From a virus (lineage: Duplodnaviria; Caudoviricetes), in the IMG/VR virus record IMGVR_UViG_3300037247_002432, positions 1-44,764 of that record: a DNA stretch of 44,764 nucleotides, one strand, 5' to 3'. A model generated the notes under the pieces. That model worked only from the letters and a program-made list of their open reading frames with translations. It did no database searches and was not told the DNA's origin. Shown one piece after another: positions 31,722 to 38,104 of the stretch. How positions within the stretch are numbered: the first letter of the stretch is position 1; the number at the start of each line of letters is the position of its first letter. A program made the position numbers and the translations under genes.

Positions 31722-31877
31722 TTACTCCTTTTCCTTTTTTACATTACACCCTAGACCGAACGTGGACAGTACGACAATTATAAAGCTCATAACCAGACAG
31801 AACACCCAGTAGACCACAAAGCACAGCATGGCAAATATCAGTATGCTCCCTAATATTATCCCCAGAGTCTCAAGCAT
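31722..31877 (-). CDS. Small membrane protein at the end of the PRTRC operon
   Basis: MLETLGIILGSILIFAMLCFVVYWVF...; 51 aa; start overlaps the ThiF end. Confidence 0.55.
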   Translation of the reverse strand: MLETLGIILGSILIFAMLCFVVYWVFCLVMSFIIVVLSTFGLGCNVKKEKE

Positions 31878-32712
31878 TTTTCTTCCTCTCCTTTTTCGGT
31901 TTATCCTCACGCCACCCCATGCGCTTCCAGACTGTGGGGTCAACTGCCAGCGGGCGGGTGGAGAGGGTCTTGAGGTTAATGAACGCTCCGTGCTCCTTGA
32001 GGTGGCCCTTGCGGAACCCTTTCCAGAGTATGGCGAGTGCCGCGCTGGCTACCCACTGATTAATGAACAGGTCCTGCCGCTCAAGGGCTTCGGCCACCGA
32101 GCAGCTGGGCCCCTGTTTTGCGCTCTTGTCATGTGCCGCCATGTCTGGGTAGAGGTCGAGGACGTGCGGGAGGCGGGGGACAGTGTGCTTCGCACGCTTG
32201 GGCTGCTCCACTCCATCCTTGCCAACCGTCCCAAACACAACCTGTCCCGTGTCCATGGTGTTGCCTGTATCGAGCCAGTAGTCCACCTTGCCCATGTATG
32301 TCTTAAGAGCCTTCGCGCGCGCGGCCGCGCTGTCCACTGCCGTGACAAGCAGAGCGGTTACATGGCGATACTCTCCGATAAGCCTGCTCCTGAACTTCAT
32401 ATCATTACTTAGCATCTGCGGGTACGCCTTCCACGCAAGGCCGTAGAACATGTTCACGCGGGTGGTGAGGACCTCGGCCTTGTTGCGCCCCACATCCGAG
32501 GGGCTAAACAGCTGGCGTCCCACGTTGGCAGTGGATACCGTGTCGCCGTCGATCACGTGGACCTCAAGACCTGGCTGCTCGAGTGCGCGCAGGGCGAAGT
32601 GCAGCTGGGCAAGGCCGGAGAGCAACCGGCTGCCCGTGCCGCCCGCGCCCACCAGGATCACCGGTACAGGGTCGTTGGGCGTAACAAGCCCCGCTGGTAG
32701 ATAGTGTCTCAT
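31870..32712 (-). CDS. PRTRC ThiF-family E1-like activating enzyme
   Basis: LVGAGGTGS, DGD.VS.ANVGRQ, AVD, WLD.GN and PSCS (candidate catalytic Cys)..EAL.RQ.LFIN motifs. Confidence 0.93.
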   Translation of the reverse strand: MRHYLPAGLVTPNDPVPVILVGAGGTGSRLLSGLAQLHFALRALEQPGLEVHVIDGDTVSTANVGRQLFSPSDVGRNKAEVLTTRVNMFYGLAWKAYPQMLSNDMKFRSRLIGEYRHVTALLVTAVDSAAARAKALKTYMGKVDYWLDTGNTMDTGQVVFGTVGKDGVEQPKRAKHTVPRLPHVLDLYPDMAAHDKSAKQGPSCSVAEALERQDLFINQWVASAALAILWKGFRKGHLKEHGAFINLKTLSTRPLAVDPTVWKRMGWREDKPKKERKKNA

Positions 32713-33329
32713 ATCTGTCCGTACCCCCTTTCAAAGAAGAAGCCTTCTACCACATAGCGGCATGATGCCTTCCAGCCACCTACCGAGTCATGATTAAATT
32801 CGCCAAGCGTGATGCATATCCTCACGCCGCCTTTGTCGTCCTCGTTGTCTGTACTGGAAAAGCCCGCCAGCATGGTTCCGTGGCTATGCACGTCGATAGC
32901 TAAGGACTCGCCGTTTACAAGCTTCGGATGCGTAACTCGCGCGCTCACAGCGGTGGCCGCGAACTTCACCCGTTCGTACCTGAACCCCTTGGGCCCATAG
33001 ACCACCCACCCTGCCCACTCAAGATCTCGCTCGGCGTAGTCCGCGGCGTCCAGTTTCATTTCCTCAATTGCGTCCATTGCCTCGCGCGCGGCCTCCTCGA
33101 AGGTATCAACCTCCTCGACTTCTCCGTATGGGAGTGGGCGGGGGGAGTTCCAGAGCTTCTCCACCAGATGGCCCCATGGGGTGCGGGTCTCTAAGTACAG
33201 GCCATCGCTCGCCATCAGGAGGCGGGTCTTGCCCGCCTCGCACAACTCAAGCTCCCCGTGCTTCGGGACCATCACCGTAGGAAAGTGGTCTTGTAGTAAT
33301 GCGTCCTTTTTATTCAATGAATTATTCAT
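32709..33329 (-). CDS. PRTRC protein A, JAB-family metallo-isopeptidase
   Basis: Upstream EW and an exact HxHx7SxxD (HSHGTMLAGFSSTD); N-terminal P.VMVP..G.L and RLL.A.DGLYLE. Confidence 0.9.
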   Translation of the reverse strand: MNNSLNKKDALLQDHFPTVMVPKHGELELCEAGKTRLLMASDGLYLETRTPWGHLVEKLWNSPRPLPYGEVEEVDTFEEAAREAMDAIEEMKLDAADYAERDLEWAGWVVYGPKGFRYERVKFAATAVSARVTHPKLVNGESLAIDVHSHGTMLAGFSSTDNEDDKGGVRICITLGEFNHDSVGGWKASCRYVVEGFFFERGYGQI

Positions 33330-34003
33330 GCATCCTCCAGTATCTTTTTTACGGTTGTGCCGGTGGGGTTAAGGTATTTGACCGGAAACTTCTTGCGTCC
33401 GGAGTTTACGAGGGACTTCCAGAGCTTCTCGCCCTCAATATCCTTAAGCATGGGCGGTGCCTCGTCAGTAAATGCGCTCCGCCAGTAGGTGCTCTCCCAC
33501 TTCTTGATGGAATCAGGGCTGGCTATACCTGGGCCTTTTACATTGCCGAGACAGACATCGCCATTCGAGTTGAAAAACGGTGTATGGTACAGGCGCGTGG
33601 ATGGCCCCGGCCTCTCGTCTGTGTCCATAGCCCAAGTGTATAGCCCGCCCGACTTGACCATGAACAGCGAAGCAGGTACCGGAGCCGGACCGCTGGGTAT
33701 GCCCGTGTTCTTGTAAAAGTACATGTGCCGCACCTGGGCGGGGCTCCACCACAGCACCATCCCAAGCTCGTTGCCTGGAGTGAAAGACAGTACCTCTGGC
33801 GGGATAAAACCTACGCCCGAATTCATCTCAGGTATAACCGCCGTGCAGAGGTCCATGAGAGCCTGACGGGTTACAGGAGTGCCTTCGCTCAGACGGCCTT
33901 TGAGTACATCGTGGCGCATAATAAAAACCTTTTCCTTATCCTTAGAGCGATACTCCACTAAGGCTGATCTGGCTGTAAAATCTTCATGAGGGTTTATTTC
34001 CAT
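33326..34003 (-). CDS. PRTRC protein B, prokaryotic E2-like
   Basis: LWW.P...R, P.P..LF, T.LY..PFFN..G.VC.G (candidate catalytic Cys) and WE..YW.SAFT motifs. Confidence 0.88.
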   Translation of the reverse strand: MEINPHEDFTARSALVEYRSKDKEKVFIMRHDVLKGRLSEGTPVTRQALMDLCTAVIPEMNSGVGFIPPEVLSFTPGNELGMVLWWSPAQVRHMYFYKNTGIPSGPAPVPASLFMVKSGGLYTWAMDTDERPGPSTRLYHTPFFNSNGDVCLGNVKGPGIASPDSIKKWESTYWRSAFTDEAPPMLKDIEGEKLWKSLVNSGRKKFPVKYLNPTGTTVKKILEDA

Positions 34004-36546: not shown

Positions 36547-36934
36547 CGCATATCTCCTTTAATTTAGTCGTAGTTACTGCCCTGCCCTCTAAAAAGTGCA
36601 AGGCTTCCACCCCATGCTCGCGAAGTCTGAGCCCGATCTCGTAGTATCGGTGGCAGTCGCAGGGGTGCAGCTCCATGCAAAGCAGAAGGGTTACTCCCTC
36701 CTGCTCACGGAGCCATTCAATTGCCTGGGAGCGTATATCGCTACGGCCTCCCAAGACATCGCCCTTCCAGATGTAGAGTTCGCCGAAGCGCTCTATAAGG
36801 GCCTTGCGTGAGAACCCACGCTTTCGGGAGTGCGGGACGGACCGCACGTCTATGATGCGGTCCGCCCTGATCAACTCCACGATATGGGCAAAGTCGTCAA
36901 GCGTTATGCTCTGATAGCCCACAGTGTAAACCAT
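36479..36934 (-). CDS. DUF488-family protein
   Basis: YTVGY, IDVR..P.SR..GF, Y.W...LGG and LLC.E..P..CHR motifs. Confidence 0.88.
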   Translation of the reverse strand: MVYTVGYQSITLDDFAHIVELIRADRIIDVRSVPHSRKRGFSRKALIERFGELYIWKGDVLGGRSDIRSQAIEWLREQEGVTLLLCMELHPCDCHRYYEIGLRLREHGVEALHFLEGRAVTTTKLKEICDERDARKKGDSGTGAQLGFPKS

Positions 36935-36937
36935 GTT

Positions 36938-38104
36938 TTATTTGTTCCCCTTTTTCGAGTCGCTGGCTGCCTGGGAAATAGCTGACTGTAACCTCATGGG
37001 CATCACCAAGGCATCACCGTTTATCACGCAGGGAGCAAGCTGCTCTGTCATTGCCAAGACCGCTTCTTCCTGGCCGTATGCCTTGAGGGCGTCGCGGAGG
37101 TAGTTGGCGTTGAATGCCATCTTTCTCTCGCCGCCCTTTGTCTTGCAGGGAATCTCCCATTTGTACTCGCCCTTTTCGCTTGAGCGGGCCTCGACCACAA
37201 GTTTGCCATTGAAGCTAAGTACGATCTCGTTGCTATCACCCGCCAGAGGTAGTGCACCCTCAAGGACCGCAAGAAAGTCTTTTGACTGAAAGCTTGCTGT
37301 TACCTCGGACTTCTTTGGGAACAAGGACGCGTGGCCTGGGTATGTCCCATTTACGCATCTGACTATAAGCTCGCCATCTGCCATTGAAAGCTTGGCGCGC
37401 TCGGCGCCATGCTTAAAGGTATCTCCGGCCGAGTGCTTCACTATAAGCTCCGCTGATCTGCGGGGGAGTAACAACTGCTCTGCCTTTTCAACCTTGTCTA
37501 TAGCCGTGCGGTGCAGTCTGCTGCCGTCAGTGGCCACGAGGTAACCCACTGCCCTGTCAATGCAGATTGAATTCAGGGTGTAGCGTGTATCGCTGTTTCC
37601 GGCTGCCGGAAGAACACGGGCCACCTTTGAGGCGAACTCGGTGATGGTCATATCCTTGCCCGTGACCTTCGGGGTGGTTGGGAAATCCTCTGCGGGCATT
37701 GTGTGGATACGGCAACGCCCGTTCACTGATACAGTCTCGTCCTCAAAGGAAAGCTCCACTGTGGTGATTTCCTTGTCGAGAGCCTTGATCTCGCGGATAA
37801 CGATATCAAGGGGGATGCAGACCGAGACATCAGAAGTCGCACCGGCACCTAGTGAGCGCACCCAGTAGTTCTCAATGTCCGTGGCCTTGATGGTACAGGA
37901 CTTGTCCGAGGCCGTAAGGTGAGCATGGCCCAGTATAGGCATAGTGGCCTTGCTGTCGGATACGTCGTGTGCCACCTTGAGAGCTCCGAAGAACGTCTCG
38001 CGGTCCAGTGTTAATGCGACCTTTGTTTTCGTGACCTTTGGAACTGCTGCTGACTTCTTTTCTGACTTATTGCCTTTTCCTTTTCCTTTTGCTACACTAG
38101 CCAT
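36938..38104 (-). CDS. dnaN: DNA polymerase III beta sliding clamp
   Basis: MPIL, ATD.E, A.DFP, R..LN.I, VATDG.RL, G.YP, FN..YL.DAL and C-terminal VMPMRL motifs. Confidence 0.9.
   Translation of the reverse strand: MASVAKGKGKGNKSEKKSAAVPKVTKTKVALTLDRETFFGALKVAHDVSDSKATMPILGHAHLTASDKSCTIKATDIENYWVRSLGAGATSDVSVCIPLDIVIREIKALDKEITTVELSFEDETVSVNGRCRIHTMPAEDFPTTPKVTGKDMTITEFASKVARVLPAAGNSDTRYTLNSICIDRAVGYLVATDGSRLHRTAIDKVEKAEQLLLPRRSAELIVKHSAGDTFKHGAERAKLSMADGELIVRCVNGTYPGHASLFPKKSEVTASFQSKDFLAVLEGALPLAGDSNEIVLSFNGKLVVEARSSEKGEYKWEIPCKTKGGERKMAFNANYLRDALKAYGQEEAVLAMTEQLAPCVINGDALVMPMRLQSAISQAASDSKKGNK

Follow-up and report, generated by a model that had tools for sequence, protein, structure and literature searches.

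The 44,764-nucleotide (nt) stretch of tailed-phage DNA analysed here (IMG/VR record IMGVR_UViG_3300037247_002432, positions 1 to 44,764; hereafter the window) carries on its minus strand, from position 38104 to 31722, a complete-looking gene set for ubiquitin-like (Ubl) protein conjugation beside a gene for a DNA sliding clamp. The gene order is dnaN, DUF488, a ParB-like gene, E, C, a 302-residue F-slot protein, B, A, ThiF and a 51-residue open reading frame (ORF); from E through ThiF the genes abut or overlap. Judged by sequence, the locus is a PRTRC (ParB-Related, ThiF-Related Cassette; NCBIfam TIGR03734-03742), the operon type 6d of the available text of Iyer, Burroughs and Aravind 2006 (PMC1779556). 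The clamp-ParB genes and PRTRC are two separable modules within one phage family. We tentatively favour a reading in which the PRTRC set would attach protein C to some non-clamp target, with the clamp as its likely docking platform on phage DNA.

Predicted conjugation enzymes and their tag

NCBIfam PRTRC models were applied with their model-specific cut-offs and Pfam was run on 49 window proteins. ThiF, A, B, C and E exceed the NCBIfam cut-offs, in the order E-C-F-B-A-ThiF. Pfam matches are ThiF, Prok-JAB with DUF2016, Prok-E2_D, Prok_Ub, PRTRC_E, ParB_N with HTH, DUF488 and three DNA_pol3_beta domains. The features of this part of the locus are the following.

31722..31877, minus strand: 51-residue hydrophobic ORF, overlapping the E1 stop and outside the cassette
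31870..32712, minus strand: PRTRC ThiF-family E1 (TIGR03736, 271.1 bits against a cut-off of 144.75)
32709..33329, minus strand: protein A, JAB peptidase (TIGR03735, 111.7 bits against 101.8; Prok-JAB)
33326..34003, minus strand: protein B, diverged E2-like (TIGR03737, 138.4 bits against 131.45; Prok-E2_D, 113 bits against 25)
33994..34902, minus strand: F-slot protein, 302 residues, mostly helical, positioned between C and B and aligning over its full length with relatives' F-slot proteins
34903..35250, minus strand: protein C, pro-Ubl (TIGR03738, 80.5 bits against 45.95; Prok_Ub)
35251..35610, minus strand: PRTRC E (TIGR03741, 38.0 bits against 37.95, barely above the cut-off)

E1 has a GAGGTG motif at residue 22 and a PSCS motif whose Cys204 is invariant across 42 aligned E1s. 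Protein A has Glu104 plus HSHx7SxxD at residues 148-161; of 33 A clusters, 32 retain the JAB motif, the window's among them. Cys151 of B is invariant (69/69 aligned proteins). The modelled structure of B has a predicted local distance difference test (pLDDT) score of 93.6, and E2/UBC-type entries make up nearly all of its top 24 structure-comparison rows. Asp180 replaces the family His in this protein: the alignment column holds His in 45 of the 69 sequences, shifted by one in a few and missing in most close relatives. The available text of PMC1779556 calls this downstream His absolutely conserved in 6d E2 proteins; on the alignment, Asp180 marks a subclade variant of B.

Protein C is 115 residues long, with a GTKG sequence that ends at Gly67 and is followed by a 48-residue extension. 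Among 125 distinct C domains, A is present in 43 of the 44 with an extension longer than 10 residues and in two of the 81 without, and five further loci (L365, L366, L368, L369 and L370) all fit the same rule. Since the presence of A tracks the extension, A is likely the maturase of pro-C that exposes Gly67, although the split is largely bound to lineage, which weighs against this assignment and makes the counts overstate their independence.

These data sustain the core of an original prediction made from the DNA alone, namely that a tailed phage carries a complete Ubl conjugation pathway with intact E1, E2 and JAB catalytic motifs: the gene set looks complete, the profile searches recover it, and every ORF that was named lies on the minus strand where it had been placed. 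Its names for E, C, B, A, ThiF, dnaN and DUF488 stand. F, however, is assigned by position and by homology to relatives' F-slot proteins only, the ParB is not of the PRTRC type, and the small putative transmembrane ORF is not a cassette gene; this last matches no family in NCBIfam, Pfam or PHROG, and blastp found no homologue of it in L086, the closest relative.

Clamp module and its linkage to PRTRC

The genes and elements upstream of E are listed below.

35634..35655, minus strand: 9-bp GC hairpin with a T-rich tail, between ParB and E (-23.2 kcal/mol, z -3.3)
35662..36546, minus strand: ParB-like protein, 294 residues (ParB_N and HTH)
36479..36934, minus strand: DUF488 protein (Pfam), found after dnaN in six of eight related phage loci
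36938..38104, minus strand: DnaN beta sliding clamp, 388 residues (three DNA_pol3_beta domains, PHROG 947, clamps of the PDB to an E-value of 8e-22)
38201..38312, minus strand: 112-nt AT-rich upstream element, copy 1, before dnaN
38313..39314, minus strand: putative DNA methyltransferase (weak Pfam MTS/N6_Mtase matches), upstream of the clamp
39494..39605, minus strand: 112-nt upstream element, copy 2, before a 60-residue ORF and the methyltransferase, 88% identical to copy 1

A single-sequence E1 scan of viral contigs gave no match, while an alignment-based scan found 334 IMG/VR stretches that encode an E1 relative; the best 80 of the 334 were fetched and are the viral loci counted below. By profile search, dnaN is present in 22 of these 80 loci; when the loci are clustered at 70% E1 identity, 19 of 38 clusters have it. 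In 18 of the 22 loci it lies within 200 nt upstream of E. Adjacency of dnaN to PRTRC thus extends beyond this genome, as the original prediction required. Control phage loci have dnaN in none of 80 cases (a redundant set with 39 distinct ParB sequences), and by a different method the gene was found in 87 of 50,697 phage records; an integrase-based control yielded six distant loci and was not used.

The two modules occur apart. Eight of 32 viral clamp loci, two near-duplicate pairs among them, belong to related phages that have dnaN-(DUF488)-ParB without PRTRC. In three of these loci (L333, L336 and L337) a single small gene stands after ParB, before the homologue of window gene 23570-24523, so that the slot occupied by PRTRC in the window is empty. 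In L086 the order of the modules is reversed, and one 49-nt element precedes both E and dnaN. The hairpin between ParB and E is a terminator-like end element of the dnaN-ParB module, and hairpins also follow ParB in L086, L335 and L338. With this hairpin, the single apparent operon of the original prediction needs read-through. Because the modules occur apart, the slot is empty in relatives and a hairpin lies between them, the clamp genes were probably there first, with PRTRC added later. A coupling between clamp and PRTRC is plausible without being required.

DnaN scores 129.4 bits with TIGR00663, just under the cut-off of 137.65. It has a Lys-rich N-terminal extension, as seen in this clamp clade, and its peptide-pocket segments are present in altered form (DGSR for DGHR, the pocket His being replaced by Ser). 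The ParB-like protein is far below the cut-off of PRTRC_parB (TIGR03734; 79.9 against 278.6 bits); it has an internal QGALL sequence (35919-35905), where seven of nine homologues have Qxx[IL]F. The DUF488 protein ends in QLGF, a tail considered as a clamp motif and rejected: it is encoded where the gene overlaps ParB by 68 nt, and six of six homologues lack it. A literature search on DUF488 gave no functional lead.

The methyltransferase, which lies beyond the span covered by the original prediction, belongs to the clamp module and has a clamp-binding-like motif, QNTLF, at its N-terminus. Its homologues are fused in frame to DnaN in L333 (928-3123) and L334 (3898-6057), both phages of this family, with 45-46% identity over 172 residues, and to E in L021 (5108-7237), L053 (5310-6818) and L061 (6147-7604), with 33-35% identity, all three directly after dnaN. 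E is also found directly after dnaN in L077 (5922-7460), within a protein that bears a DksA/TraR-type zinc finger.

The 112-nt element is likely a promoter or operator. It folds no better than shuffled sequences (z -0.07), and a search of 245 sequences found its own two copies only. Sigma-70 sites are no more frequent than chance would give (15 against 21.8). The dnaN leader (38110-38175, minus strand) is conserved in L086 (11600-11670) and contains a GGGGCAT...ATGCCCC stem, with a folding no better than shuffles.

Docking, target choice and alternative explanations

The disordered tail of E carries ETGLF (35283-35269), a candidate clamp-docking motif. The pattern [STDGNPE][LIM]F, which was chosen after seeing the data, occurs in 41 of 55 E clusters against 3.9 when shuffled, and in 17 of the 19 clusters with dnaN; in C extensions it is not enriched (3/47, 4.7 expected). 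The E-DnaN co-fold proposed in the original prediction lends weak support: the clamp dimer with E residues 88-119 reached 0.43, against 0.00 for the best control, but values of 0.60 or under that reach the mark are also obtained with mismatched pairs. Of 157 solved pairs 116 reached the mark, as did two of 215 mismatched ones; with values at or below 0.60 it was reached by only 18 of the 157 and by both mismatches. The runs had at least 80% agreement of contacts and a partner pLDDT of at least 38. The signal may be memory, since clamp-peptide complexes have already been solved. In the Atlas, E matches PRTRC_E clusters only. The E proteins of clamp-less Burkholderiales phages (L001, 16401-16991, and relatives) have an internal RQxS[LI]-type motif and a terminal acidic-hydrophobic tip.

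The F-slot protein has zero NCBIfam or Pfam matches, as do 109 aligned homologues at an E-value of 0.001; among 18 closer homologues one matches TIGR03742 (E-value 0.0024), and its profile does not match one Burkholderiales-type F profile. Its model (pLDDT 89) is helical, with no Foldseek match at an E-value of 0.001, generic helical rows only in structure comparison (up to Z 5.8) and unnamed Atlas matches at 0.82 or less. When 170 locus pairs are sorted into five identity bins, F comes out as the most diverged member in every bin. Between the window and L086 it is 25.8% identical, against 83% for E1, 87% for the C domain, 79% for A, 63% for E and 58% for B, and its GC content is 0.485 against 0.53-0.61 in the other core genes. 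Divergence this fast would be expected of a component that faces a foreign partner which itself changes, and it makes F a candidate target selector; for the same reason a host target, named as an alternative in the original prediction, fits better than the clamp or ParB. In a gut (Phocaeicola vulgatus) prophage, protein B is diversified by a retroelement according to the available text of bioRxiv 10.64898/2026.10.01.756045, which by analogy points the same way.

From the gene content, motifs, module independence, co-occurrence counts and fusions, which are direct observations, we infer every step of the following mechanism. A would very probably cut pro-C after Gly67, given its co-occurrence with the extension. 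E1 would then, with good probability, adenylate Gly67, hold it on Cys204 and pass it to Cys151 of B, in keeping with the invariant residues and the fold. The chances seem evenly balanced that E would tether this machinery to the peptide pocket of the clamp via the LF motif of its tail, beside ParB and the methyltransferase. F together with B might choose the target, most likely a protein of the host or of a rival element that meets phage DNA, a step put forward with some reserve on the strength of F's divergence.

A series of observations weighs against this mechanism. Within up to 10 kb, 58 of the 80 viral PRTRC loci have no dnaN; the three complete isolate PRTRC phages Dina, BgVeeders33 and YO105_4 have no clamp gene (3/3); dnaN is nearby in only one of eight plasmid PRTRC loci inspected; and none of the 32 viral clamp loci from the reciprocal search is flanked by PRTRC, over flanks that are in some cases short. 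Of 36 clusters that have no clamp gene, 24 carry the E tail motif as well. In a held-out set, from which 19 of 27 matches were dropped as training-like, it occurs in one of eight dissimilar E proteins (0.3 expected), the others ending in different hydrophobic tips. The Gln of the clamp-binding consensus (QL[SD]LF-like) is usually absent, being found in four of 43 matches and missing from ETGLF of the window. Protein B lacks the family His, and its match to the E2 fold is weak (best Z 4.4, range 3-4.4, root-mean-square deviation 4.3 with 110 residues aligned), with no match in Foldseek.

Several of these points would be expected if the neighbourhood were incidental, PRTRC being a clamp-independent accessory cassette in a variable slot between early and terminase-position genes, whose E tip binds a cassette protein or a hub such as the SSB-tail pocket. 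The separate occurrence of the modules in either order, the hairpin between them, held-out E tails that mostly lack xLF and in several cases have acidic-hydrophobic tips, and an unrelated RHS gene in the same slot are all in line with it. We nevertheless consider it rather unlikely in view of dnaN in half of the viral E1 clusters and mostly directly before E, of the methyltransferase fused to clamp or to E, and of the upstream element shared by E and dnaN in L086. Eukaryotic PCNA is ubiquitylated or SUMOylated at Lys164. A comparable switch, as the original prediction proposed, would put C on the phage's own clamp or on ParB and change the partners taken; where a phage encodes no clamp, that of the host would be the acceptor. 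The window resembles the PCNA system in having a Ubl pathway near a sliding clamp, and the recurrent adjacency of dnaN, the Lys-rich extensions of the clamp clade, in whose tail the acceptor Lys may be mobile, and an E tether that would put the enzymes at the clamp speak in its favour. Unlike PCNA, the clamp alignments have no conserved acceptor: no Lys is invariant or at 90% in 14 clade clamps or in 27 clamps of fetched loci. There is no RING E3, and clamp modification is only hypothesised here. The claim that clamp or ParB is the likely substrate is not supported in view also of the clamp-ParB module without PRTRC in eight related loci and of the three complete PRTRC phages without dnaN, and a self substrate leaves the speed of F divergence unexplained. 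Moreover, A, which tracks the pro-peptide, is absent in 22 of 22 clamp-linked viral loci and occurs with dnaN in only four of 65 A-bearing loci examined, the window locus included, so a JAB-reversed clamp switch is not general. We hold the switch to be improbable, and grant no better prospects to a broader ubiquitin-like code on the phage clamp, in which E docks E1-E2-F on a clamp carrying ParB and the methyltransferase, and C on the clamp or its clients switches the tool belt; if true, this code would be the bacterial-virus counterpart of PCNA ubiquitylation.

Two other roles for C seem very unlikely. C could be a ThiS/MoaD-like carrier of sulfur or a small group, the cassette helping neighbouring DNA-modifying enzymes to modify DNA or a metabolite. 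Sulfur-carrier precursors processed by JAB exist, and the neighbours include the methyltransferase and a DAM-like/GNAT gene, with a TAGT glycosyltransferase in L086; the invariant Cys of the E2-like B argues otherwise, as does an E1 that has an invariant Cys but lacks a rhodanese domain, and none of the 49 window proteins scanned in Pfam matches a sulfur-donor family. The other role, of equally slight probability, is the tagging of virion proteins of the phage itself or of a superinfecting one, as Bil does from the host side. According to the available text of bioRxiv 10.1101/2024.11.21.623953, all four enzyme classes are also found in Bil operons, which modify a tail protein; a prophage could use such tagging for exclusion, and F varies fast. 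Against it stand the same cassette on 358 plasmid records, its location among DNA-binding genes and apart from the 43-nt elements that precede morphogenesis genes, and the lack of any PADLOC model match for B, A, C, E or F. Attachment of C to a non-clamp target from a clamp-docked machinery is the reading that we retain, tentatively.

Genomic context and related systems

The window encodes Mu-like baseplate, tail and portal proteins, a tyrosine integrase, a Mor-family activator (42255-42527) and the DAM-like/GNAT gene. The listed sequencing run is a marine sediment metagenome. In run X1 a single contig covers 31578-38301 with zero differences (X1 may be the source of the window DNA). The window may be partial, since its proteins are also found on a 68,943-nt contig. 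The nearest E1s among genome contigs are in Nitrospirota and Syntrophorhabdus-type bins (49-55%), a weak hint, from sequence similarity, to the host. A tRNA search of the window found none; L086 has tRNA-Lys and tRNA-Ser near its integrase (1287-1362 and 4122-4194) and an MgsA C-terminal-like gene after ParB (13810-14541).

Between PRTRC and the packaging genes lies a gene for a 2095-residue RHS protein (25054-31341, minus strand) with SpvB, FG-GAP and TcdB_midN domains, a lower GC content (0.454) and flanking 72-nt direct repeats (24609-24680 and 31551-31622, 75% alike). Run X1 covers this gene with short variant pieces only, so it could be a recent insertion or an assembly join. A 43-nt element precedes two morphogenesis blocks (19705-19747 and 24543-24585, minus strand) and is kept in L086 (14673-14705 and 19600-19632); it is a candidate late promoter for the Mor-family activator. 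The DAM-like/GNAT gene is followed by a second ParB-like gene (39888-42013, minus strand), a pair also found downstream of PRTRC in nine of the 80 viral loci, and an AT-rich 36-nt palindrome (39826-39861) lies between this ParB-like gene and the repeated upstream element. A 609-residue gene considered as terminase-like was so placed by position alone, with no support from Pfam, PHROG or the PDB. The Mor-like protein was rejected as a clamp client because no motif is present. In the available text of bioRxiv 10.1101/2025.01.04.631326, phage Mu C/Mor activators use the clamp and Mor has a short DLF-type clamp motif; the window likewise has Mu-like virion genes and a Mor-family activator, and differs in that its Mor-like protein has no N-terminal Qx[DE][LM]F and that it encodes a tyrosine integrase and a clamp of its own.

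With PRTRC/6d the locus shares the order E-C-F-B-A-ThiF, a small Ubl with a terminal Gly, a helical protein, an E2-like protein with a conserved Cys, a JAB with an N-terminal domain, and E1. Unlike PRTRC/6d it has a short clamp-module ParB instead of the 550-residue PRTRC ParB, a B without the downstream His, an F too diverged for TIGR03742, and its own clamp, DUF488 and methyltransferase genes upstream. As phage versions often lack the PRTRC-type ParB, Dina among them, the assignment rests on the core and not on ParB. The cassette, including its presence in phages, is already known and has been catalogued since 2006. It is found on at least 358 plasmid records and on the 334 viral stretches, RefSeq annotates it in Ralstonia phage Dina (NC_055026), and published cases in temperate phages, from two papers of 2026, include Burkholderia phages BgVeeders33 and AB2 (PMC13366799) and the P. 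vulgatus prophage (bioRxiv 10.64898/2026.10.01.756045), so that the rarity in phages assumed in the original prediction is not supported. The available text of PMC13366799 presents the AB2 cassette as a possible partitioning module and makes no mention of ubiquitin there, and the corresponding texts of PMC3318190, PMC7466150 and bioRxiv 10.64898/2026.03.05.709809 merely list the cassette or the E1-like fold. Dina and BgVeeders33 have, like the window, a phage-borne core, JAB and an extended pro-Ubl; unlike it, they and YO105_4 have no clamp gene.

Bil and Bub operons (PMC10557695, bioRxiv 10.1101/2024.11.21.623953) likewise combine Ubl, E1, E2 and JAB. As the available parts of these sources describe them, they serve, or are candidates to serve, in host defence and have a multidomain E1 (Bil) or oxyester chemistry (Bub); for the JAB of type I Bub the pre-protein is the proposed main substrate, a role that resembles the one suggested here for A. 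The window set, unlike these, is borne by the element, has a single-domain Cys E1 and includes E and F. The literature searched, which excluded most subscription journals and all supplements, holds no experiments on PRTRC/6d and mentions neither a PRTRC-clamp link nor the E tail motif. New here are the tracking of the tag's extension by A, the JAB/pro-tag form beside a cognate clamp, modules that are separable within one phage family, and an E2 subclade without His. The locus is a compact test case that unites pro-tag, protease, both enzymes and cognate clamp, with L086 (83% identity in E1, 26% in F) as a natural comparison. It leads to three direct predictions: C would be matured by A, the clamp bound by E and the target set by F. 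The bacterial Ubl pathways studied so far defend the host, whereas PRTRC here belongs to the invading element.

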